From assembly GCA_965279515.1 (NCBI GenBank), contig CBDIID010000003.1:1792001-1856000 (forward strand): a DNA stretch of 64,000 bases. Direction: 5' to 3'. The first letter of the stretch is position 1, and each line of letters starts with the position of its first letter. Shown here in pieces: positions 15,033 to 22,141 of the stretch. The notes beneath the pieces were generated by a model. The model did no database searches, was not told the origin of the DNA, and saw only the letters and a program-made list of their open reading frames with translations. The stretch comes from Turneriella sp. GTDB lineage: Bacteria > Spirochaetota > Leptospiria > Turneriellales > Turneriellaceae. A program made the position numbers and the translations under genes.

Positions 15033-16250
15033 TTAGCCGGCTTTTTTCGAAAACAATTCGATAATTCCCGCAACGGGTACGGGGCGTGAATAGAGATACC
15101 CCTGCCCGCGCGTGCAGCCGAGTTCGCGCAAAGCCTTGGCCTGCTCCTCTGTTTCAATACCCTCGGCGATCACGCCGATGTTCATGGCATTCGCCAGATC
15201 GATGATTGCCTTACAGATACTGCGGCTTTCTTTATTTTGCGGCAGGCCGCTGATAAAGGAGCGGTCGATCTTGAGCGAGGCAGGCTGAAACTGCTGCAGG
15301 TATAAGAGACTCGAATACCCGGTGCCGAAATCATCGAGCAAGACCGGGAAACCATGCTTCGCGCATTCTGCGATCCAGTCTTCCATTTTGCTGCGTAAGA
15401 AGAGATTTCTTTCGAGAATTTCGAGATGCACCTGCTGCGGATTAATGTTTTCCGTGCGCACAGTTTCGGCGAGGCCGGGCAGAAAATCTGAGTGTTCCAT
15501 CTGCCGGCGTGCAACATTGAAACTCATCGAGAGGTCAGAATGCGTGTGATTCTGAATTTGTTTTAACGCAGCCAACCCCTCGGCGACGACCCATCGCCCG
15601 ATCGGTAAGATCAGGTTTGTCGCCTCGGCAATTTCAATAAATTCCAGCGGTGACAGAAGCCCGCGCTTGGGGTTCTCCCAGCGGATGAGCGCTTCAAGGC
15701 TCACCATCGCCCCTGACTTCAAATCGATCACCGGCTGATAGTAGAGCCTGAAATGATCTTCTTTGATCGCGGTGCGCAGATCGGCTTCGAGGCGGGCCAT
15801 GCCCACCGCTTCGAGAATGCGCATCTGGTTAAAGGTCTCTGCGTCTTCGGTAATATCTTTTCGCGTGAAGGTGGAGTACTGGGTGCGCGCGCGTTTTACT
15901 TCCTGGCGGAAGTGTTTCATGACAACATAAAGCAGCATGCGCAAAATCGGATCAGCGTCGCTGAGGCGCGCGTCGACTTGCTGTTGCGTCACCAGCGTCA
16001 GCGTGGTACGCTTCGTCGCCAGCGCTGAGGCACTGCGGGGCTGGCGGTCGACGAGTGCCAGCTCGCCAAACAGGTTTCCAGGTGTAAGAATATTCAGCAC
16101 CTTGCGCTCGGCGCCGATATGCGTGAAAATCTCTACTTCACCGTCTTCAATAATATAGGCGTAATTGGAAATATCGCCTTCGGCGAAGATAACTTCGCCT
16201 TCAGCAAAGATGCGCGTGTCGACGTGTTGAATCATAGCGCGGGGGATCAT
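15033..16250 (-). CDS. cNMP-binding + EAL domain c-di-GMP phosphodiesterase
   Basis: FGELALVDRQPRSASA cNMP cassette; EALIRW, DDFGTGYSS, KIDRSF, AEGIE, QGY. Confidence 0.92.
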   Translation of the reverse strand: MIPRAMIQHVDTRIFAEGEVIFAEGDISNYAYIIEDGEVEIFTHIGAERKVLNILTPGNLFGELALVDRQPRSASALATKRTTLTLVTQQQVDARLSDADPILRMLLYVVMKHFRQEVKRARTQYSTFTRKDITEDAETFNQMRILEAVGMARLEADLRTAIKEDHFRLYYQPVIDLKSGAMVSLEALIRWENPKRGLLSPLEFIEIAEATNLILPIGRWVVAEGLAALKQIQNHTHSDLSMSFNVARRQMEHSDFLPGLAETVRTENINPQQVHLEILERNLFLRSKMEDWIAECAKHGFPVLLDDFGTGYSSLLYLQQFQPASLKIDRSFISGLPQNKESRSICKAIIDLANAMNIGVIAEGIETEEQAKALRELGCTRGQGYLYSRPVPVAGIIELFSKKAG

Positions 16251-16350: not shown

Positions 16351-16713
16351 TCAGGTCGCGGGTTTTGTGTCAGGGGTCTTTTCGTGGGTATAGGGGCAGC
16401 ATCCCCATGCTCCCCACGAGCCCCATTTCTCCATGAACTTATCACGCTCTTCGGGCGTCATACCTTCCATCTTCTTTTCCATCTTGTAGCGCCATTTCTG
16501 CGCATTCCAGCCGTGGCCATGCTTAAAGCCGCCACCCCGGAACAGGATATGGGATAGGATAATCAGCCCACAAGCCTGCCAGAAGTTGACATAGGGACCG
16601 TGGAAGAGCTCCGGTACGAGTTTGTTCCAGAGCAGCATGGTTAGCCCGCCGAAGGCGGCGATGAAGATCGGTGCCAAAACCAGGAATTTAAGAATCTTTT
16701 TTGCCTTGTGCAT
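16351..16713 (-). CDS. Small two-TM membrane protein co-transcribed with the ECF sigma factor
   Basis: MLLWNKLVPELF..NFWQACGLIILSHILF, MTPEERDKF; GAGG ribosome-binding site. Confidence 0.8.
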   Translation of the reverse strand: MHKAKKILKFLVLAPIFIAAFGGLTMLLWNKLVPELFHGPYVNFWQACGLIILSHILFRGGGFKHGHGWNAQKWRYKMEKKMEGMTPEERDKFMEKWGSWGAWGCCPYTHEKTPDTKPAT

Positions 16714-16749: not shown

Positions 16750-17256
16750 TTAATCATTAATATCCTCGAACAAATCATTCAGCCGCGCCCGCAAATACAT
16801 CACGGCATAGCGTTTGCGCGAGAGTAGCGTGTTGATACTCTCGCCGGTCTCCGCAGAAATCTCGCGGAATGTCTTGCCCGAAAGCTCGTTGAGCTCAAAC
16901 ACCTGGCGCTGCTCGGCAGGCAGCTCAGAAAGAGCCTGCTCGAACTTTTCCCAGAACGCCGCATTGCCCTGCGTCGCCGCCAGTTGCACCGCCTCGCTCG
17001 AGTCGAGGCTCGTGGCATGACGGCGCCGCCGGTAGAAATCCACAATTTTGTTGCGCGCAGCGCGGTAGAGCCACGCTGTCATATCTTCGATGCTCTCGAT
17101 GAGATTACCCTCAAGCAGGCGCGAAAAGATATCCTGTACGATATCTTCTGCGTCTTCCTCAGAATTGACACGGTTTTTGACGAAGGAGATTAATCCCTTC
17201 TTTTCGTTTGTAACCGTTTCTTCGAACCGCATCAGGGGCAAGGCCTCTGCATCCAT
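16750..17256 (-). CDS. ECF RNA polymerase sigma factor
   Basis: DAEDIVQDIF, WLYRAARNKIVD, region 4 LPAEQRQVFELNELSG..EIS; start set to ATG 17256. Confidence 0.9.
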   Translation of the reverse strand: MDAEALPLMRFEETVTNEKKGLISFVKNRVNSEEDAEDIVQDIFSRLLEGNLIESIEDMTAWLYRAARNKIVDFYRRRRHATSLDSSEAVQLAATQGNAAFWEKFEQALSELPAEQRQVFELNELSGKTFREISAETGESINTLLSRKRYAVMYLRARLNDLFEDIND

Positions 17257-17333
17257 ATGCCAGTATAGACGCAGGCTGAACCGGATTATTGTATTTTTTT
17301 CCTTTAACTTGACGCAGAGTCGATCGAACCTCC

Positions 17334-18068
17334 GTGGAGCCAGTGATTGGCCTGAATGAACAGGTGGCAAAAGCTCTCCAGGACCTGAAAGACCGGTTCT
17401 GTGAGACACTCGGTCCCGATCTTGTCTCACTGGTGCTCTTCGGCAGCGCCGCCGAAGGCAGGTTGCGGCTAACATCCGACGTAAATCTTATTGTTGTAGT
17501 CAGTGATTTCAGGTCTGAACGCTTCGAACCTTTACAGCCCCATATTCTGGCAGCCGAATCTTCCATCGCGCTACGGTTGATGATTTTAAGGGAAGAAGAA
17601 ATATCCCCGGCGGCAGAGCTTTTCTCGGTCAAATTTCAGGATATTCTGCACAGGCACCGCCTGCTTTTCGGTAAAGATGTTTTTGCCGGACTCAAGGTTC
17701 CGCGTGATGCGCTCTTAAACCGTGCGCGGCAGACCCTCCTCAACCAGATGATCCGGCTACGAACTCTTTCTATCACTCGTATCGCCCATAGCGAACAATT
17801 GGTACCACTCATCGCAGATACGGCCGGTCCGCTACGCGCGTCAGCGGCAACGCTTTGCGAGCTCCGTGGAGAAGCGGTTACCGGTGGCAAGGCCGCCCTC
17901 GAAAAAATTATGGCTGAGATTTTAGGCTCCGAAGGCACTGCGCTGGCGAGCAGGATATCTTATGCACGCGAATATGGCATCTTATCTTTTCAGGAAGCGA
18001 AAGAGGTTCTGAACGAACTATCGCGGGTCATCGAGGCCATGTACCGCGAAGCGCAGCATATGCGATGA
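17334..18068 (+). CDS. Nucleotidyltransferase (Pol-beta/MNT-like) domain protein with helical C-domain
   Basis: LVLFGSAAEG...SDVNLIVVV (GS..DxN variant); stop overlaps the next start (ATGA). Confidence 0.8.
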   Translation: MEPVIGLNEQVAKALQDLKDRFCETLGPDLVSLVLFGSAAEGRLRLTSDVNLIVVVSDFRSERFEPLQPHILAAESSIALRLMILREEEISPAAELFSVKFQDILHRHRLLFGKDVFAGLKVPRDALLNRARQTLLNQMIRLRTLSITRIAHSEQLVPLIADTAGPLRASAATLCELRGEAVTGGKAALEKIMAEILGSEGTALASRISYAREYGILSFQEAKEVLNELSRVIEAMYREAQHMR

Positions 18069-19030
18069 ATGTCTTCGATTGGAACGGCCCCGACTTTCTG
18101 ATTTTCTATGCTAGCCTAGGCGGCCTTTGCTGCGTGCTCATTTCTTTTTGGCGGCGGTTTGCTGAATATAGCCCAATTCCCAAAATCGACTTAAAAGACC
18201 CTTACCTGATCGCCTACCTGTCCGGCGGCCCGTCGCTTTGCCTGCAGGCAGTAGTCATGTCACTGGTCGACCGTGGTTTAATGGAATCCAGAAGCAATAC
18301 GGTCGTCACAAAGAAAAACCAGGCTCTGGACCTCGCGTTGCCGGAAATCGAACGAGCTTTGCTGAATTATTTTTCTACGGTCCGCAGCACCAAAGAGCTA
18401 GAGACCAACGACGGTTTGCGCCGAAATGCAGAAGCTTATGGCAAAAAGCTGAGAGCCTTACGCTTGTTGCCTGACGAAAAAATCACACGCAACAGAAATA
18501 GGATGCTCAACGCGCTCATGGGTATATTCCTTATCATTGGTTTCATAAAGCTGGGTATCGCGATGGGGCGCGGCAGACACAATGTTTTTTTCTTGATCAT
18601 CATCGGTTTCATATTCTCGTTCGGAATGGTCAAATTATTTGATCCGCGCCTTACAGTGCTCGGCAAAAAAGTCCTGTCCGATTTCAAAGATATGTTTTAC
18701 ACGCTTTATCTCAAGCGGAAATATCTGAAAACTCTCGGTACGAGCATGGACCTGGCTTGGCTTGTGGCACTCTATGGAATGGACTCCGTCCCACTCGGAG
18801 TTTATCCGTTTGCGGGACATATTTTTTATGAATTTAAGCCGATGCAGCAGAGAGTCAACTATCTTTCATACATAGGTAATAGTGGCAAACGCAGCTCTTC
18901 GGATAAATCATCTCGGAACTCATCAAATTGTTCGTCATGCGGATCTTCCGGCATTACATCCTGTGGTTCATCGGGCGGGTCATCTTGCGGCGGAGGCTGC
19001 GGTGGCGGGTGTGGTGGCTGCGGCAGTTGA
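18065..19030 (+). CDS. TIGR04222-like membrane protein with C-terminal Ser/Gly/Cys low-complexity tail
   Basis: N-terminal GPDFLIFY, DPYLIAYLSGG..LVDRG, three TM segments; ends SSCGGGCGGGCGGCGS. Confidence 0.88.
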   Translation: MNVFDWNGPDFLIFYASLGGLCCVLISFWRRFAEYSPIPKIDLKDPYLIAYLSGGPSLCLQAVVMSLVDRGLMESRSNTVVTKKNQALDLALPEIERALLNYFSTVRSTKELETNDGLRRNAEAYGKKLRALRLLPDEKITRNRNRMLNALMGIFLIIGFIKLGIAMGRGRHNVFFLIIIGFIFSFGMVKLFDPRLTVLGKKVLSDFKDMFYTLYLKRKYLKTLGTSMDLAWLVALYGMDSVPLGVYPFAGHIFYEFKPMQQRVNYLSYIGNSGKRSSSDKSSRNSSNCSSCGSSGITSCGSSGGSSCGGGCGGGCGGCGS

Positions 19031-19862
19031 CATACAAGATAAAGTGGGTCTCGGTTGGCGACCTGAGATCGGCCTGGATATACTAAAGCACGCCGATCAG
19101 ATCGACCTCGTCGAAGTGATCGCCGATGATTTTTTCACAAAACCCAAAGCATTGCTGACGCTTAAGGCACAGCTGCCCATCGCCCTGCACGGGGTAACAA
19201 TGGGTCCGGCTTCGACATTTCCCGTAGAGAAAAAACGCATCGAGAATCTCGCACGCCTCGTGGATAAAGTAGAACCCGTTTTCTGGTCAGAGCACCTCGC
19301 CTTCGTACGAGCGGGTAAAATTGAAATCGGCCATCTCGCCGCCCCCCCGCGCAACGAGACAACTGTCGAAGGCACATGTCGAAACCTCGCGCAGATGCGG
19401 CGTATCATCGGCTCCATAGGGCTGCTGGAAAATGTGGCAAGCCTGATCGAACCACCTGCCAGCGATCTCAAGGAAGACGAATTCATTTCTGCTATTCTCG
19501 GGTCTTCCGATGGCATGCTGCTGCTGGATCTCCACAATCTTTATGCAAACTCGGTTAATTTCGGCTTCGATCCCTTCGTTTTTCTCGAGAAGATTTCGCA
19601 TGAAAAAATCGCGGCGATTCACCTTTCGGGGGGCCGAGTCCTACCCAACGGCAAAATCCTCGACGATCACATACACGACGTTCCCGATATTGTCTTCGCT
19701 CTTCTCGAAAAAACTGCTTCGCTCAAAAGAACACCGCTTACCGTCATCATCGAACGCGATGGTCGATATCCGAAGTTTACGGATTTATTGGCTCAAATCG
19801 GACGGGCGCGCCAGGCTCTACAGGCCGGGAGGGAGCAACTTGCGCACAACGCAGCAGTTTGA
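19002..19862 (+). CDS. DUF692 family multinuclear non-heme iron-dependent oxidative enzyme (MNIO); start uncertain (GTG 19002/19011/19014/19044 or ATA 19032)
   Basis: VGLGWRPE, LHGV, SEHL, LENV, LDLHNL, IHLSGG, DDH, IERD metal-ligand motifs. Confidence 0.93.
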   Translation: MAGVVAAAVDIQDKVGLGWRPEIGLDILKHADQIDLVEVIADDFFTKPKALLTLKAQLPIALHGVTMGPASTFPVEKKRIENLARLVDKVEPVFWSEHLAFVRAGKIEIGHLAAPPRNETTVEGTCRNLAQMRRIIGSIGLLENVASLIEPPASDLKEDEFISAILGSSDGMLLLDLHNLYANSVNFGFDPFVFLEKISHEKIAAIHLSGGRVLPNGKILDDHIHDVPDIVFALLEKTASLKRTPLTVIIERDGRYPKFTDLLAQIGRARQALQAGREQLAHNAAV

Positions 19863-20058
19863 ACTTTTTTTAGCACAGCTTTACACCGACGAGACCCTGC
19901 TCGCGCGATTTGTCATGAATCCGGCAGCAGAACTGGAAAGAACGGAGCTAAATCCCGTCGAAATCGCAGCATTAATGAAAGTCAATGCTGCGGATTTACA
20001 AGGCGCCGCGCAAAGCTTTCAAGCTAAAAGAAAAAAACGGGGCGGGCACCACATCTAG
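19840..20058 (+). CDS. 72-aa helical protein, probable MNIO partner
   Basis: GGGAG then TTG at 19840, overlapping the MNIO end; FLAQLYTDETLLARFVMNPAAEL...AQSFQAKR. Confidence 0.7.
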   Translation: MRTTQQFELFLAQLYTDETLLARFVMNPAAELERTELNPVEIAALMKVNAADLQGAAQSFQAKRKKRGGHHI

Positions 20059-20062
20059 CGCC

Positions 20063-22141
20063 TCAGCTTTTTTTCGCTGGCAGGGTTCGCATCACCCGTA
20101 AGAGCTCTTTCTCGAGGTAGGGCACGAGCGTCGTGACAAAGGTTTCGGTCAAATGGTGGGCATCGCGGTAAACCACGACATTGCCGATGATCGGCGGGCA
20201 TTGATCTTTGGTGCACATATACTCAGTCAGGTTAATAGTACCGACACCCGGAAACCCCTGCGCCGCAGTGACCAGGTTATCGCTCTGGCCGTCGAGGGTG
20301 ATATAGCGGGATTTCCAGCAGTGCGGCGATGCGACCCCGTTCCACATTAAACACTTCGGAATCTCTATCCAGCCGCCCTTCACATTGGTGAGCATGACCG
20401 GGTTGTCAGCCATGACAATGATGCGCGAACCATTCGCCTGTAGGCGGCGGAAAGTCTCGCGGTAACCTTCGATCTGTTTCTCGGCCGCGGGAAAACCGCC
20501 GTAGACACCCGTGCGGCCACCCGTGGAGACAACGTAGTCGGGTTTAGTCTCTGCTAGCCATTTATGAAAACGCATGCGAAAGCCGTCGCAGTCGCCGCGG
20601 TAACCGAACTCCGATGACCAGGTCGGAAACTCGCCGATCGTGCAGGCGATCTTTACCATCATCAAAAGCTTCCACTTCTGGCGTTTCGCGATAATGTCAA
20701 AGGCGGGGCCATACGACATGGTATGCGAGTCGCCGATGAGCGCCACGGTTACCTTGCCGTTTGGGTCTCCCAGCTCGCAGCGCTTACCCAGATTCATGCA
20801 CTCGAAGAAGCGATACCTGGTATCGCGCTCGGCGATGCGCAGGTTGGGTTTTAAGGGCACACCTTCAGGCACCGGTGCGGGATTCACTTTGTCGAGAGCT
20901 GCGGCGCCGGGATAACGCGGGTCTTTACCGTAGCTCTTTTCATTTTCTGCCTCGAGAATTTTCTGGCTACGCTCTTCTAAGACACGCACCGTCAGCGAGG
21001 CAACGGCGGAAAAAACCAACATCGCAAAAACCGTGGTGAATGCGCCACGGATAAACTGGCGGCGCGTGAGCTCGGGTGCCCGGAAACTGAAGCGGCCGTG
21101 GCGGAAGGGATCTTCGACAAGATATTTACTCAGCACAGCGAGCACGACGGTGGCAGCGATAATGATCGCCGGATCGTAAGGACGCGCGAAATCCTCACCG
21201 AAGGGTTTGAAGAAGACAATCAGCGGCCAATGCCAGAGGTAGAGTGAGTACGAAATATCACCGATATACTGCATCGGTTTGAGCGCGAGAATACGGTATG
21301 GAGAAAATGGCGCATCACCAGACAGAATGAGAAGAGCCGTACCCACGGTTGGAATCAAAGCCACCCAACCCGGAAAACGCATCTTCTCATTGATGAGAGC
21401 AATGGCCGCGATCACAGCCGCGAGCCCAATCCAGCCCATCGCGGTGCGTAAGCCTGGCGCGAGATTAATTTTTGTCGAGGCTACTGCAATGAATGCACCG
21501 AGGGCGAGTTCCCATGCGCGCGTGACGGTCGTGAAATATTCGGTGCCGGCCCAGCGCTGCGGCACGAGCGAACAATAAAGAGAAAAGCCGAAAATCGCCA
21601 CAATCAAAACGCCGGCATAGACGCGCACAGAGCCGCGGCCGAGCCGGCCAAAGAAGCCGGCGAGCGCGAGTAGTGGCGGCCAGATGACATAGAACTGTTC
21701 TTCGATCGAAAGCGACCAGTAGTGCTGCACGGGTGAGGGCGCGACGCCCTGTGCCCAGTAGTCGACAGCCTGCGCCACGAGCGCCCAGTTTTCGAGATAG
21801 AGCGCTGAGGCCATGATGTGGTGTGCCGACCCCACCCATTCGGTGCGCGCGAGAAAAAGCAAAGTGCCCACGAGCGCCACGAGAAGCACGAGCGTTGCGG
21901 CGGGCAATAGGCGGAGCATCCGCCTGCCCCAAAAACGCAAAAGGTCGAGCCTGCCCTCTTGCTCGATTTCACCGACGATGAGGCTGGTGATCAAATAACC
22001 CGAGATAACAAAGAACACGTCGACGCCGACAAAGCCGCCCTTGAAGATTTTTGGCCAAACATGGAAGATGAGAACGGCGACGACGGCGATCGCGCGCAGG
22101 CCCTGTAAATCGGGGCGAAAACTCAGACGGGCAACAGACAT
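20063..22141 (-). CDS. AT3-SGNH O-acetyltransferase (OafA/OatA-like)
   Basis: DLQGLRAIA, GVDVFFVISGYLIT, HYWSLSIEEQFY; C-terminal GDSH and DAHH. Confidence 0.93.
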   Translation of the reverse strand: MSVARLSFRPDLQGLRAIAVVAVLIFHVWPKIFKGGFVGVDVFFVISGYLITSLIVGEIEQEGRLDLLRFWGRRMLRLLPAATLVLLVALVGTLLFLARTEWVGSAHHIMASALYLENWALVAQAVDYWAQGVAPSPVQHYWSLSIEEQFYVIWPPLLALAGFFGRLGRGSVRVYAGVLIVAIFGFSLYCSLVPQRWAGTEYFTTVTRAWELALGAFIAVASTKINLAPGLRTAMGWIGLAAVIAAIALINEKMRFPGWVALIPTVGTALLILSGDAPFSPYRILALKPMQYIGDISYSLYLWHWPLIVFFKPFGEDFARPYDPAIIIAATVVLAVLSKYLVEDPFRHGRFSFRAPELTRRQFIRGAFTTVFAMLVFSAVASLTVRVLEERSQKILEAENEKSYGKDPRYPGAAALDKVNPAPVPEGVPLKPNLRIAERDTRYRFFECMNLGKRCELGDPNGKVTVALIGDSHTMSYGPAFDIIAKRQKWKLLMMVKIACTIGEFPTWSSEFGYRGDCDGFRMRFHKWLAETKPDYVVSTGGRTGVYGGFPAAEKQIEGYRETFRRLQANGSRIIVMADNPVMLTNVKGGWIEIPKCLMWNGVASPHCWKSRYITLDGQSDNLVTAAQGFPGVGTINLTEYMCTKDQCPPIIGNVVVYRDAHHLTETFVTTLVPYLEKELLRVMRTLPAKKS

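Follow-up and report, generated by a model that had tools for sequence, protein, structure and literature searches.

In the solved MNIO-partner complexes TglHI (8hci/8hi7) and MbnBC (7dz9), the enzyme has a small helical partner that is encoded next door and is obligate for it. In the bufferin/oxazolin systems (BufA-BufB-BufC), whose chemistry is summarised in PMC12452194, the substrate is a small, secreted, Cys-rich peptide and the partner a DUF2063-RRE protein of ~260 aa. The TIGR04222-MNIO class of the same paper (Microb Genom 2025) comes closest to the locus described here; according to its text, the Cys-rich tails of TIGR04222 proteins are explicitly proposed as MNIO substrates, cluster partners are termed 'PME-type 2' (DUF2063-like) or are absent, and 'very small proteins' encoded after MNIO genes ('adjamnio-V') are left unexplained. 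The sequence-only reading of the present DNA held that such tails had merely been noted as precursor-like, a view that is outdated, since their pairing with an MNIO was already printed there as a prediction. The two further proteins of our locus are not described in that paper's text; the terms 'nucleotidyltransferase', 'NTP_transf_2', 'PF01909', 'NHLP' and 'Nif11' do not occur in the text or in two supplementary files, and Table S1 may still list the domain. What we add is an MNIO partner with a leader-like fold, a nucleotidyltransferase (NTase)-like protein with a D-x-N motif as the fixed first gene, and the finding that D-x-N relatives of the latter lie beside TPM or TIGR04222-like tail proteins.

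The window, which is the whole stretch of 64,000 nucleotides that we analysed, contains four overlapping genes on the + strand, spanning 17334-20058, for an NTase-like protein, a TIGR04222 membrane protein, an MNIO (DUF692) and a 72-aa helical protein. The earlier observation of this four-gene cassette is confirmed, with every gene on the strand and at the place first assigned to it. The NTase-like protein (244 aa, 17334..18068), recognised by PF01909 and an ANT-like fold, ends in an ATGA at 18065-18068 that its stop codon shares with the start of the TIGR04222 gene (321 aa, 18065..19030; profile and hydropathy). The Ser/Gly/Cys low-complexity C-terminal tail of the membrane protein, the presumed MNIO target according to composition and alignment, is encoded at 18884..19027. 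The MNIO, a member of a distinct clade (PF05114), is placed at 19002..19862 with an uncertain start: the preferred GTG at 19002 lies 5 nt after GGAGG and would give a 29-nt overlap with the TIGR04222 gene, and GTG codons at 19011, 19014 and 19044 are alternatives. A start at 19026 was rejected because the codon there is GTT. The gene of the 72-aa protein (19840..20058; assigned by NF038399, its NHLP/LigA/Os1348 fold and a predicted complex) starts with a TTG at 19840, preceded by GGGAGGGAG, and overlaps the MNIO gene by 23 nt. None of the nine proteins scanned at the locus matches DUF2063 in Pfam. With a Cys/Ser/Gly-rich TIGR04222 C-terminus, an adjoining MNIO and no DUF2063 gene, the locus belongs to the class of PMC12452194, and it shares with that class a C-proximal Cys-rich region directly before an MNIO close to bufferin-type enzymes, the tail being the proposed substrate; it differs from the class, as far as the paper's text describes it, in its partner of the NHLP/LigA/Os1348 type and in the D-x-N NTase-like protein that is its fixed first gene.

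We interpret the locus as a self-contained operon made of two modules, and we assign this interpretation a probability of roughly 60%. The first module would comprise the NTase-like protein and the TIGR04222 membrane protein, with the Ser/Gly/Cys tail as its working part; the second would comprise the MNIO and the 72-aa protein of predicted leader-like (NHLP/LigA/Os1348) fold, which would dock on a clade-specific loop beside the mouth of the MNIO barrel and replace the usual DUF2063 partner. In the cytoplasm, this heterodimer would oxidatively rewrite several Cys of the tail, probably into thiooxazole- or oxazolone/thioamide-type groups by analogy with the bufferin and methanobactin enzymes, and the outcome would be a membrane-tethered peptide that binds soft metals. 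The NTase-like protein, whose second metal-binding carboxylate is always Asn, may bind, present or nucleotidylate the Gly-rich tail on the cytoplasmic side, and the basic, aromatic-rich C-terminal extension found on the small protein in most homologues, not in the window copy, may recruit the enzyme to the membrane. What the analysis shows is which genes are present, their strict synteny, the conservation of residues, the folds, a predicted interface between MNIO and partner, and a coupling between NTase and tail protein; the chemistry at each step, the metal involved and the tail topology we infer.

The arrangement of the cassette was analysed in two surveys. The genome survey comprised 13 loci with an MNIO at 48-55% identity, and 12 of them have the four genes in identical order, two of these 12 ending at a contig edge before the NTase. 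The TIGR04222 gene lies directly upstream of the MNIO in 12 of the 13, a co-occurrence that the sequence-only reading had named as a check on its proposal. The small gene follows the MNIO in all 13 (11 free and complete, one cut by the contig end and one, in locus L036, fused), and all 10 loci in which TIGR04222 is present and the upstream DNA is long enough also have the NTase. The metagenome survey was anchored independently on the NTase and covered the best 80 of 205 relatives. Among these, TIGR04222 follows the NTase in 73 of the 74 loci in which 200 nt or more of sequence remain (the exception being L105); where 1200 nt or more remain, the MNIO is present downstream in 50 of 50 loci, and where 2100 nt or more remain, so is the small gene in 40 of 40. 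No fifth conserved gene was found in the flanks, whose clusters are lineage-specific and reach 19 of 93 loci at most. The four-gene arrangement is far beyond chance.

The first gene of the cassette raises the question of whether its product is an enzyme. The NTase-like protein matches the fold profile PF01909 (NTP_transf_2) with 23.3 bits, above the cut-off of 21, and its AF2 model (pLDDT 91.5) has the two-domain fold of aminoglycoside nucleotidyltransferases, with Foldseek matches to ANT(9) 6xz0, AadA 6fzb and ANT(4') 6un8/1kan at TM 0.5-0.6 and E ~4e-7. As in AadA, ANT(9) and ANT(4') (6fzb, 6xz0, 1kny), an N-terminal NTase fold is combined with a C-terminal helical bundle in a protein of similar length, and the G-S motif, the first Asp and the Glu after strand 3 are conserved. 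The NTase fold is marked by an hG[GS] motif, which G37-S38 matches, and by a canonical metal-binding pair, [DE]-x-[DE]. The signature of our protein is instead G37-S38 ... S48-D49-V50-N51 ... E89, and D49-V50-N51 departs from the canonical pair in 58 of 58 cassette proteins, in which G37, S38, D49, N51, E89, K100, D103, R107, R141, R143, R168 and R212 are all invariant; N51 is likewise invariant in 25 of 25 sequences spanning both NTase-like subfamilies. Judging from this D-x-N motif, the NTase-like protein may not be an enzyme. The alternative that survives best is nevertheless that the protein is a true enzyme and no passive tail binder, one that transfers a nucleotide (AMP, for instance) to a Ser hydroxyl of the tail, either to prime it or to modify it a second time; we regard this as possible but doubtful. 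The ANT-type fold and the invariance of G37-S38, D49, E89, K100 and the Arg residues just listed speak for it, as does the position of E89, which we take to be equivalent to the catalytic Glu of AadA; in addition, both kinds of tail that accompany these proteins are Ser-rich or have a conserved Ser/Thr near the end. Against these points stand the Asn in place of the second carboxylate, a D-x-N motif that extends to distant homologues, and the fact that no Ser is conserved at the same position in the two tail types. The scores for the ANT equivalogs are all far under their cut-offs: 26.5 bits against 340 for ANT(9) NF012212, with only residues 8-61 aligned, and 17-27 bits against 193-587 for the ANT families in NCBIfam, ANT(9) and ANT(3'') among them. 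The identity to AadA, ANT(9) and ANT(4') is 11-17%, the genomic context is that of a membrane protein with a tail and not of antibiotic resistance, and nothing suggests a resistance function.

The two-module interpretation owes much to the distant relatives of this NTase. A search of 400 sampled genomes of the window's phylum gave 25 weaker homologues (56-80 bits) of the same length, 23 of which have the G[ST]...D-x-N motif. A TPM-domain protein (PF04536, 121-144 bits in 23 of 23 tested) is encoded directly after 23 of the 24 that have downstream room, the remaining one of the 25 having none. These TPM proteins have a Gly/Phe-rich C-terminal region, which in most of them ends in GGGGA[ST]RGF; their tails are Gly-rich like those of TIGR04222, and they come without Cys and without an MNIO. 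After one further homologue come a TIGR04222-like protein whose tail is rich in Cys and a radical-SAM/SPASM enzyme, in this order and again with no MNIO. The TPM and radical-SAM contexts derive from the sample of one phylum and from genomes that are in part related, 14 of 17 belonging to one family. In G419, the genes after a cassette-type NTase and TIGR04222 encode a TrkA-type channel and a radical-SAM protein, and no MNIO lies within 2.2 kb; the genome with the fused MNIO and small protein has no NTase homologue at E<=1e-8. Since D-x-N relatives pair with TPM or TIGR04222-like tail proteins without an MNIO, the NTase is better assigned to the tail protein than to the chemistry of the MNIO.

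The tail protein itself matches the TIGR04222 profile with 91.3 bits over residues 14-242, above the curated cut-off of 43, and DUF2207_C only weakly (24.2 bits, cut-off 33). Its hydropathy indicates clear hydrophobic helices at about 11-29, 150-168 and 174-192, a soluble domain of about 110 aa between the first two, and a borderline fourth segment at 228-246, which reaches 1.2 on the 19-residue Kyte-Doolittle scale in the window protein and 1.3-2.1 in homologues. The protein terminates in ...SSCGSSGITSCGSSGGSSCGGGCGGGCGGCGS; the tail proper is its last 48 residues, with 7 Cys, ending in CGGGCGGGCGGCGS. In 12 aligned sequences, C308, G309, G313, C316, G317 and G318 are invariant. Among 59 distinct complete tails, 57 have CGG within the last 9 residues, the last 45 residues contain 3-8 Cys, and the last 30 consist of 45% G, 29% S and 17% C. 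For related TIGR04222 proteins, a periplasmic tail is predicted in the text of PMC12452194; if the tail is periplasmic, modification by the MNIO would have to precede translocation.

The MNIO aligns with positions 2-262 of the 263 in PF05114 at 207.3 bits (cut-off 25); with the TIGR04222 score given above, both profile searches proposed in the sequence-only reading gave clear matches. A search of the whole genome also retrieved this MNIO. The closest named family is BufB (NF050167, 172.6 bits, below the equivalog cut-off of 310), followed by HvfB (134.3, cut-off 360), ApyH (99.8, cut-off 400), ChrH (43.1, cut-off 600) and MbnB (33.4, cut-off 325). Because the enzyme is under the cut-offs of all named MNIO equivalogs, their reactions cannot be transferred to it with confidence. 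Among PDB sequences it matches 3bww (4e-20), and its similarity to TglH 8hci_D (7e-14) and MbnB 7dz9 (2e-6) is low. The His/Glu/Asp motifs remarked on earlier recur in the alignment of 34 clade members, in which H63, E97, H98, E143, D176, H207, D221, D222, H223, H225 and E251 are invariant and H178 nearly so; these columns are candidate metal ligands, and some of them may correspond to the iron ligands of MbnB and TglH.

These properties bear on a second alternative, in which the tail is not the MNIO substrate. The tail would itself bind a metal or Fe-S cluster, or be a flexible linker or anchor, the MNIO and its partner would act on a peptide encoded elsewhere or on a small molecule, and TIGR04222 would be a sensor, transporter or scaffold. 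The text of PMC12452194 lends it weight, reporting no MNIO at all in one third of the genomes with TIGR04222 and no C-proximal Cys in over a quarter of TIGR04222 proteins. Within our own data, the same direction is indicated by G419, by the Cys-free TPM tails that occur without an MNIO, and by L036, where the fused MNIO and small protein adjoin a secreted protein with Cys-rich repeats and no TIGR04222. Even so, we consider this alternative unlikely in view of the position of TIGR04222 directly upstream of the MNIO in the genome loci, the regular succession of both after the NTase in the metagenome loci, gene overlaps that resemble those of translationally coupled operons, and flanks that hold no other conserved Cys-rich small ORF. 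In the distant locus without an MNIO, moreover, a radical SAM/SPASM protein, another type of peptide-modifying enzyme, takes its place beside the Cys-rich tail, which argues that the tail is a substrate. The sequence-only reading had the MNIO modify the TIGR04222 tail and yield a tethered or released metal-binding product. The first part is partly supported by the synteny, the CGG tails, the conserved MNIO columns, BufB as the nearest family and the predicted complex described below; the modification itself, a metal-binding product and a release of the tail are putative.

The 72-aa protein, described earlier as helical and now predicted to have five helices (model pLDDT 84), matches no Pfam family. 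Its best fold match is Os1348 (6lk7; VIA-align Z 8.0, rmsd 3.5 over 72 residues; Foldseek TM 0.62-0.69, E 0.05-0.12), followed by SonA chains, and it shares with Os1348 and SonA the small helical fold and a motif of the type 'LARLYTD..LR..FL.DP'. Its profile retrieves nitrile hydratase alpha (6e-4) and SonA/LigA (0.016-0.02) among PDB sequences. The match to 8hci_C, a non-MNIO chain of 268 residues that we take to be TglI, ranks fourth (residues 2-73, Z 4.9, rmsd 2.8 over 66 residues) and is in the chance range for helical proteins; neither TglI nor NGO1945 (3dee) is among the Foldseek matches listed. In sequence the protein bears no detectable resemblance to TglI or MbnC, and it lacks an RRE-like second domain; its likeness to those partners lies in being a small helical protein encoded next to an MNIO, in a complex that is here predicted. 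Its conserved domain of ~64 aa ends at K63-R64, and the window copy continues with the 8 residues KKRGGHHI. In 45 of 46 distinct proteins this extension has 2-32 aa (three have 3 aa or fewer), and in L057 the frame reads through for 649 aa; it is variable, not alignable, Arg-rich and frequently contains Trp, with Cys in 7 of the 46.

Structure prediction, the kind of check proposed earlier, gave a confident complex of the MNIO with the small protein, with an ipSAE of 0.93 in three runs against 0.00 for the best of 3 controls, at least 92% contact agreement between runs and a partner pLDDT of at least 88. Of 157 solved complexes 116 attain the score mark, as do 2 of 215 mismatched pairs; this calibration is rough here since custom alignments were used, and the score may reflect solved MNIO-partner complexes that the predictor had already learned. 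The small protein has 13 invariant or nearly invariant positions, and 10 of them (E8, L11, A12, Y15, D49, G52, L53, S59, K63 and R64) lie in the predicted interface. In L036, the MNIO and the small protein form one reading frame, with the latter at the MNIO C-terminus. In its position directly after the MNIO and its lack of a DUF2063 signature, the small gene also agrees with the PME-type 2 partners in the text of PMC12452194.

A third alternative takes the 72-aa protein for the true RiPP precursor, with an NHLP/LigA-type leader and a short core, and TIGR04222 for an exporter, an immunity protein or an unrelated membrane partner. The earlier statement that there is no short free precursor ORF nearby needs this caveat, as the 72-aa protein itself is in the NHLP/LigA clan of RiPP-precursor leader domains: it matches NF038399 (Os1348 family, NHLP clan) with an E of 4e-7, and 12 of 13 homologues do so at E<=1 (best 3.4e-10). 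Its closest relatives by sequence and fold are RiPP precursors; SonA is named as such in PDB titles, and Os1348, according to the text of PMC7726476, is presumed to be one, in a GNAT/HEXXH/SagB-type cluster. In addition, the window copy has Gly-Gly before its last three residues, and a leader domain would likewise be predicted to bind its enzyme. We nevertheless judge a precursor role very improbable: the NF038399 score of 30.0 bits is under the cut-off of 40, the region after K63/R64 is conserved neither in length nor in sequence, and everything that is conserved belongs to a single folded domain, with its conserved residues at the predicted interface. The invariant Cys motif is on TIGR04222 and not on the small protein. 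Since it is predicted to dock on the MNIO, is fused to it in one genome and, in contrast to Os1348 and SonA, has no conserved core, the small protein is, by sequence and model, a partner and not a RiPP precursor, in line with the role first suggested for it, even if its fold is leader-like.

Finally, the NTase might be an unrelated minimal-NTase toxin-antitoxin or anti-phage element merely adjoining the MNIO genes, an idea suggested by its N-terminal region, which weakly matches MntA (E 5e-4) and HalB (E 0.028) in NCBIfam, and by PDC-S09 candidates in PADLOC, the best of which reaches 34.8 bits over residues 8-59 only. This idea has next to no probability, being already contradicted by the synteny that fixes the NTase as the first cassette gene in every locus with room. 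The matches do not extend beyond the region of the generic G-S...D motif, there is neither a HEPN protein nor another toxin partner, and the family is otherwise coupled to Gly-tail membrane proteins.

Returning to the two-module operon, a copper-type metal-binding role as in the bufferin systems is plausible by analogy, given a Cys-rich substrate and BufB as the best named match. The cassette differs from those systems in that its MNIO would act on the tail of a polytopic membrane protein (321 aa, no signal peptide) and not on a small secreted peptide, its partner is a 72-aa NHLP-like protein in place of one with DUF2063-RRE architecture, it has an additional NTase-like gene, and its MNIO is under the BufB cut-off. 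As a separate observation, the window's own genome also carries a canonical bufferin/oxazolin-type operon elsewhere.

The four open reading frames between 17334 and 20058 all lie on the + strand, overlap or abut one another, and form a cassette of 2.7 kb; the sequence-only reading had described them as four overlapping same-strand genes, and this description is correct, since ORF positions, junctions and family matches all agree with it. The first gene (17334-18068, +) encodes a nucleotidyltransferase (NTase)-like protein of 244 aa that matches PF01909 at 23.3 bits against a threshold of 21, and its stop shares an ATGA with the start of the second gene (18065-19030, +), whose 321-aa product is a TIGR04222 membrane protein (91.3 bits against 43) with a C-terminal Ser/Gly/Cys tail, ...SSCGGGCGGGCGGCGS. 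The third ORF (+) encodes the MNIO (DUF692) enzyme, matched by PF05114 at 207.3 bits, so that both profile searches suggested in that reading returned the expected family. Its putative start is GTG 19002, with GGAGG 5 nt upstream; GTG 19011, 19014, and 19044 are possible alternatives, while a start at 19026 is impossible because the codon there is GTT. The small gene (19840-20058, +; 72 aa, without a Pfam family) begins at TTG 19840, preceded by GGGAGGGAG, 23 nt before the MNIO stop. A promoter and terminator scan of 17000-20400 gave counts at the level of shuffled sequences (4 against 2.3±1.3; 2 against 4.0±1.8).

The analysis of homologous loci indicates that this gene order is strongly maintained. 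In a scan of one genome per species, 13 loci carry an MNIO at 48-55% identity, and their hosts are Burkholderiales, Rhodospirillales-type Alphaproteobacteria, Cellvibrionaceae, and Bdellovibrionota-type MAGs. A TIGR04222 gene directly precedes the MNIO gene in 12 of the 13, the NTase gene comes first in all 10 with enough upstream DNA, and the small gene follows the MNIO gene in all 13 (11 free and complete, one cut by the contig end in L034, and one fused). Metagenome loci were anchored on the NTase alignment, and their neighbours were called with HMMs from our own alignments; among the best 80 of 205 relatives, 74 loci leave 200 nt or more of downstream sequence, and in 73 of these TIGR04222 comes after the NTase; all 50 loci that extend for 1200 nt or more have the MNIO next, and all 40 that extend for 2100 nt or more also have the small gene. 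The sole locus missing TIGR04222, L105, has an NTase gene that looks frameshifted. The co-occurrence of TIGR04222 with this MNIO, proposed earlier as a check, is thus borne out in genomes and metagenomes. Clustering of 1,185 flanking frames revealed no fifth conserved gene, the largest flank cluster covering 19 of 93 loci and being limited to one lineage of near-identical contexts.

Of 1.84 billion cluster representatives, 320 match the NTase profile at E<=1e-30. Among genomes of the window's phylum, 3 of the 401 sampled have a family member at cassette-level scores; of 300 genomes sampled from the class of one proteobacterial carrier, only that carrier has the family. This rarity fits a patchy unit that has probably moved horizontally. 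The MNIO orthologue is absent from the 60 nearest genomes, whose best matches (27-32% identity) are a different, bufferin/oxazolin-type paralogue; inspected by eye, its operons also encode DUF2063, an ECF sigma factor and a precursor with the pattern EGxCH...CKGQG. It is this bufferin/oxazolin-type MNIO, and not the TIGR04222 cassette, that is common to 12 of 13 same-genus genomes, and the window's genome also has an operon of this type. The MNIO of that operon, the second one in this genome (PF05114, 299 bits), lies outside the window at G000:C3:3894382-3898161 (L001/L025), in a 509-aa open frame with a C-terminal extension that is presumably a DUF2063-type partner; beside it, we recognized by eye an ECF sigma-like gene and a gene for a small secreted peptide rich in Cys (…EGECHGINGCKGQGDCG…).

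Some loci show particular arrangements. The Pseudobdellovibrionaceae genome G432 has two cassette copies (L148 and L152), and a second TIGR04222 gene is found in some loci from metagenomes, in tandem in L083 and upstream of the NTase gene in L084 and L116. In two alphaproteobacterial MAGs (L028 and L031), the cassette was seen by eye inside the dnaA-dnaN interval, with flanking products that end like DnaA (…HTTVMHAVRKIEEL…) and DnaN (…ALYVLMPMRV).

The AF2 model of the NTase-like protein (pLDDT 91.5) has the two-domain build of AadA, ANT(9), and ANT(4') (TM 0.5-0.6, E about 4e-7), whereas sequence scores against these families are negligible; we found no hints of a resistance role. All 58 cassette NTases keep G37-S38, D49, E89, K100, D103, R107, R141, R143, R168, and R212, and E89 is presumably the equivalent of the AadA catalytic Glu. 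Residue 51 is Asn in the same 58 proteins, giving the motif D49-V50-N51 (D-x-N) in place of D-x-[DE]; in the NTase fold, this position normally holds the second metal-binding carboxylate. The kept residues and the substituted one bear on opposite sides of the reading in which the protein is a true enzyme of tail nucleotidylation, a role that we regard as conceivable but doubtful.

In the TIGR04222 tail, CGG lies inside the last nine residues of 57 of 59 distinct complete cassette proteins, the two exceptions looking frameshifted; the last 45 residues contain 3-8 Cys, and Gly makes up 45%, Ser 29%, and Cys 17% of the last 30. Searching PDB sequences with the TIGR04222 profile returned Gly/Ser linker artefacts only, and the ESM Atlas gave, for the TIGR04222 soluble domain and the NTase, only clusters of 'hypothetical protein' plus DUF2207_C as a weak lead at 0.78. 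The tail may lie in the cytoplasm or in the periplasm, because Kyte-Doolittle values for the fourth hydrophobic segment are borderline (1.2 in the window protein, 1.3-2.1 in homologues). The 2025 survey of MNIOs (PMC12452194) predicts a periplasmic location for related TIGR04222 proteins; if the tail is periplasmic, its modification must come before translocation of the C-terminal segment.

In an alignment of 34 MNIO sequences, H63, E97, H98, E143, D176, H207, D221, D222, H223, H225, and E251 are invariant, H178 is nearly so, and a clade-specific loop, R103-x-G-x-x-E-I-G-H-L-A-A-P-P, is conserved. The closest solved sequences are 3bww, TglH, and MbnB. The best named relatives, BufB (172.6 bits) and HvfB (134.3 bits), are both far below the equivalog cut-offs. 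Judged by these sequence features, the window enzyme is a genuine MNIO that belongs to a separate clade, and its reaction is not simply transferable from characterised enzymes.

We infer all of the cassette chemistry as follows. The cassette would comprise two modules: one pairs the NTase-like protein and the membrane protein that bears the Gly-rich tail, the other the MNIO and its leader-like partner. The heterodimer of MNIO and partner would most likely turn several Cys of the tail into heterocycle- or thioamide-type metal ligands, the product would be a membrane-tethered metal-binding tail, and the NTase-like protein may bind, present or nucleotidylate that tail. If this holds, a full-size membrane protein undergoes RiPP-type cysteine chemistry at its tail, which would blur the boundary between RiPP biosynthesis and protein post-translational modification and give bacteria a tethered metal-binding device. 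The opposing view, in which the tail is not the MNIO substrate, we consider unlikely, given the Cys-rich tails encoded next to the MNIO in nearly all loci.

A word-indexed homologue search with the 72-aa protein gave no candidate, and its homologues were found by synteny and profiles. They share a domain of ~64 residues in which, over 38 sequences, L11, Y15, F24, L37, L53, S59, and K63 are invariant and E8, A12, D17, D49, G52, and R64 are at least 90% conserved. The protein matches NF038399 'Os1348 family' at an E of 4e-7, below the cut-off, and 12 of 13 homologues also match that profile; a search of PDB sequences with its own profile led to nitrile hydratase alpha and the RiPP precursor SonA, and on these sequence grounds it is related to the NHLP/LigA clan. 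For its AF2 model (pLDDT 84), the best fold match is Os1348 (Foldseek TM 0.62-0.69; Z 8.0 over all 72 residues), followed by LigA-type domains, and residues 2-73 of chain C in the TglHI entry 8hci rank fourth (Z 4.9); this 268-residue non-MNIO chain (8hci_C) we take to be TglI. NGO1945 (3dee) is not among the matches listed by either fold search, and may still be related. Os1348 is a presumed precursor from a GNAT/HEXXH/SagB-type cluster, according to PMC7726476.

Beyond K63/R64, the sequence is unalignable and extends for 2-32 aa in 45 of 46 distinct small proteins, L057 having a read-through extension of 649 aa. The extension is rich in Arg and often has Trp ('..WWRRLL..'), and 7 of the 46 include a Cys; the window copy has KKRGGHHI only. 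Being basic and aromatic-rich, the extension may serve as a membrane-targeting segment. The joint prediction of MNIO and partner yielded a complex with a score of 0.93 in three runs, against 0.00 for the best of three controls, a result that rests on our own alignments and may partly reflect predictor memory, as solved MNIO-partner complexes exist. The mark used for this score is reached by 116 of 157 solved complexes and by 2 of 215 mismatched pairs. Contacts agree between runs to at least 92%, the partner pLDDT is at least 88, and the predicted interface holds 10 of the 13 conserved small-protein positions, which face the clade-specific MNIO loop 101-121 and residues 147-155 beside the E143 column. 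In one Azospirillaceae locus (L036:4863-6161, +), the MNIO (HMM residues 49-323) and the small domain (361-430) share one reading frame. The unalignable extension, the predicted binding, the conserved interface positions and this fusion argue that the small protein is an MNIO partner and not a precursor; despite its kinship with Os1348 and SonA, we would be surprised if it were a true precursor. A leader-like partner acting in trans, and once fused to its enzyme, would be a natural counterpart of engineered leader-enzyme fusions.

For the NTase, a toxin-antitoxin or defence role was rejected as most improbable, because the PADLOC matches are only generic and N-terminal. Its wider distribution points to tails instead. 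In a 400-genome sample of the window's phylum, weaker homologues (56-80 bits) occur in 25 genomes; they have the same length, the G[ST]...D-x-N motif in 23 of 25, and 15-21% identity to the window NTase, with G37, S48, and N51 invariant across both groups. All 25 distant loci were examined, L131 having no downstream room, and in 23 of them (L122-L145) a TPM-domain protein is encoded directly after the NTase on the same strand (PF04536, 121-144 bits in 23 of 23 tested). The N-terminus of these TPM proteins looks like a signal peptide, a hydrophobic stretch lies close to the C-terminus, and the C-terminal region is rich in Gly and Phe, mostly ending in GGGGA[ST]RGF (the end is outside view in L125 and L143); their loci contain neither a comparable Cys-rich tail nor an MNIO. 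LemA comes next after TPM in at least L137 (205 bits) and, by eye, in L126 and L127. Standard topology rules would make the Gly-rich tail the only cytoplasmic part of the TPM protein, so that a cytoplasmic NTase-like protein could hardly meet any other part of it.

Other enzymes accompany similar tails. L146:265-3059 (genome G069) encodes an NTase-like protein and a TIGR04222-like protein whose tail reads (CSS)n...CGGCG; the next gene is for a radical-SAM/SPASM enzyme (79 and 42 bits). In genome G419 (L147:217-4109), genes for a TrkA-type channel and a radical-SAM enzyme come after a cassette-type NTase and a TIGR04222 protein with a Cys-rich tail, and the nearest 2.2 kb contain no MNIO. Radical-SAM enzymes appear to be a second family targeting the same kind of Cys-rich tail. 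In the genome with the MNIO-small protein fusion, no TIGR04222 gene lies beside the MNIO, and a search at E<=1e-8 found no homologue of the NTase; a secreted Cys-rich-repeat protein (PF00839, 51 bits) is encoded upstream of the fusion and a methyltransferase downstream, and the former may be what this enzyme module acts on in place of TIGR04222.

The D-x-N NTase is coupled to Gly-rich tails whether or not they contain Cys, and whether an MNIO, a radical-SAM enzyme or neither is encoded nearby, which suggests that such tails are handled in a common way. A bolder reading, to which we give a probability of roughly one in four, is that the D-x-N NTase-like proteins are an unrecognised family of cytoplasmic readers or modifiers of Gly-rich C-terminal tails (TIGR04222, and TPM/YgcG-type in LemA operons) that hand Cys-bearing tails to an oxidising enzyme, yielding a protein-templated, membrane-tethered poly-heterocycle or crosslinked metal-binding tail. 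This oxidation could fall to a radical-SAM/SPASM enzyme, or to an MNIO that receives its leader-like partner in trans. If true, a new step of tail-directed nucleotidylation or chaperoning would join RiPP-style chemistry on a full-size membrane protein. The observed coupling bears on a large unexplained set of TPM/YgcG, DUF2207, and TIGR04222 proteins with Gly-rich tails.

The cassette is not categorically new, because the pairing of TIGR04222 tails with MNIOs has been published as a bioinformatic class. The Microbial Genomics survey of 2025 (PMC12452194) reports that TIGR04222 proteins make up ~40% of the >1,000 Cys proteins that lack a signal peptide and are encoded before MNIO genes, and that TIGR04222-MNIO clusters lack DUF2063, some having 'PME-type 2' partners. 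Its text mentions neither a nucleotidyltransferase nor NHLP or Nif11, and the NTase domain (NTP_transf_2, PF01909) is absent from two of its supplementary files, one of them incomplete. Literature searches on MNIO with NHLP, and on DUF692 with nucleotidyltransferase and RiPP, returned unrelated work only, and a search on NTase/TPM/LemA coupling found nothing relevant. Judged by that text, those supplements and these searches, what goes beyond the survey is the fixed four-gene form, the leader-like partner of NHLP/LigA/Os1348 fold, and the D-x-N NTase-like protein with its wider coupling to Gly-rich tails.

In the window, an ECF-type sigma factor (16750-17475, -; Sigma70_r2 and r4_2) is divergent from the cassette, its likely start being the Met at ~17259, ~74 bp from the NTase start, and the next gene (16351-16713, -) encodes a 120-aa membrane protein without a family match, with a Gly/His-rich GGGFKHGHGW and a C-terminal CC motif. 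Since these two genes are not conserved beside other cassettes, any regulatory link would be specific to this genome. On the other side, an AT3-SGNH acyltransferase (20063-22141, -; PF01757 116.9 bits, PF19040 91.9 bits) converges on the cassette, its stop lying 4 nt from that of the small gene, and our scan found no terminator-like site between them. Upstream of the sigma factor pair, a protein with cNMP-binding and EAL domains (15033-16250, -) is a putative cyclic-nucleotide-gated c-di-GMP phosphodiesterase.
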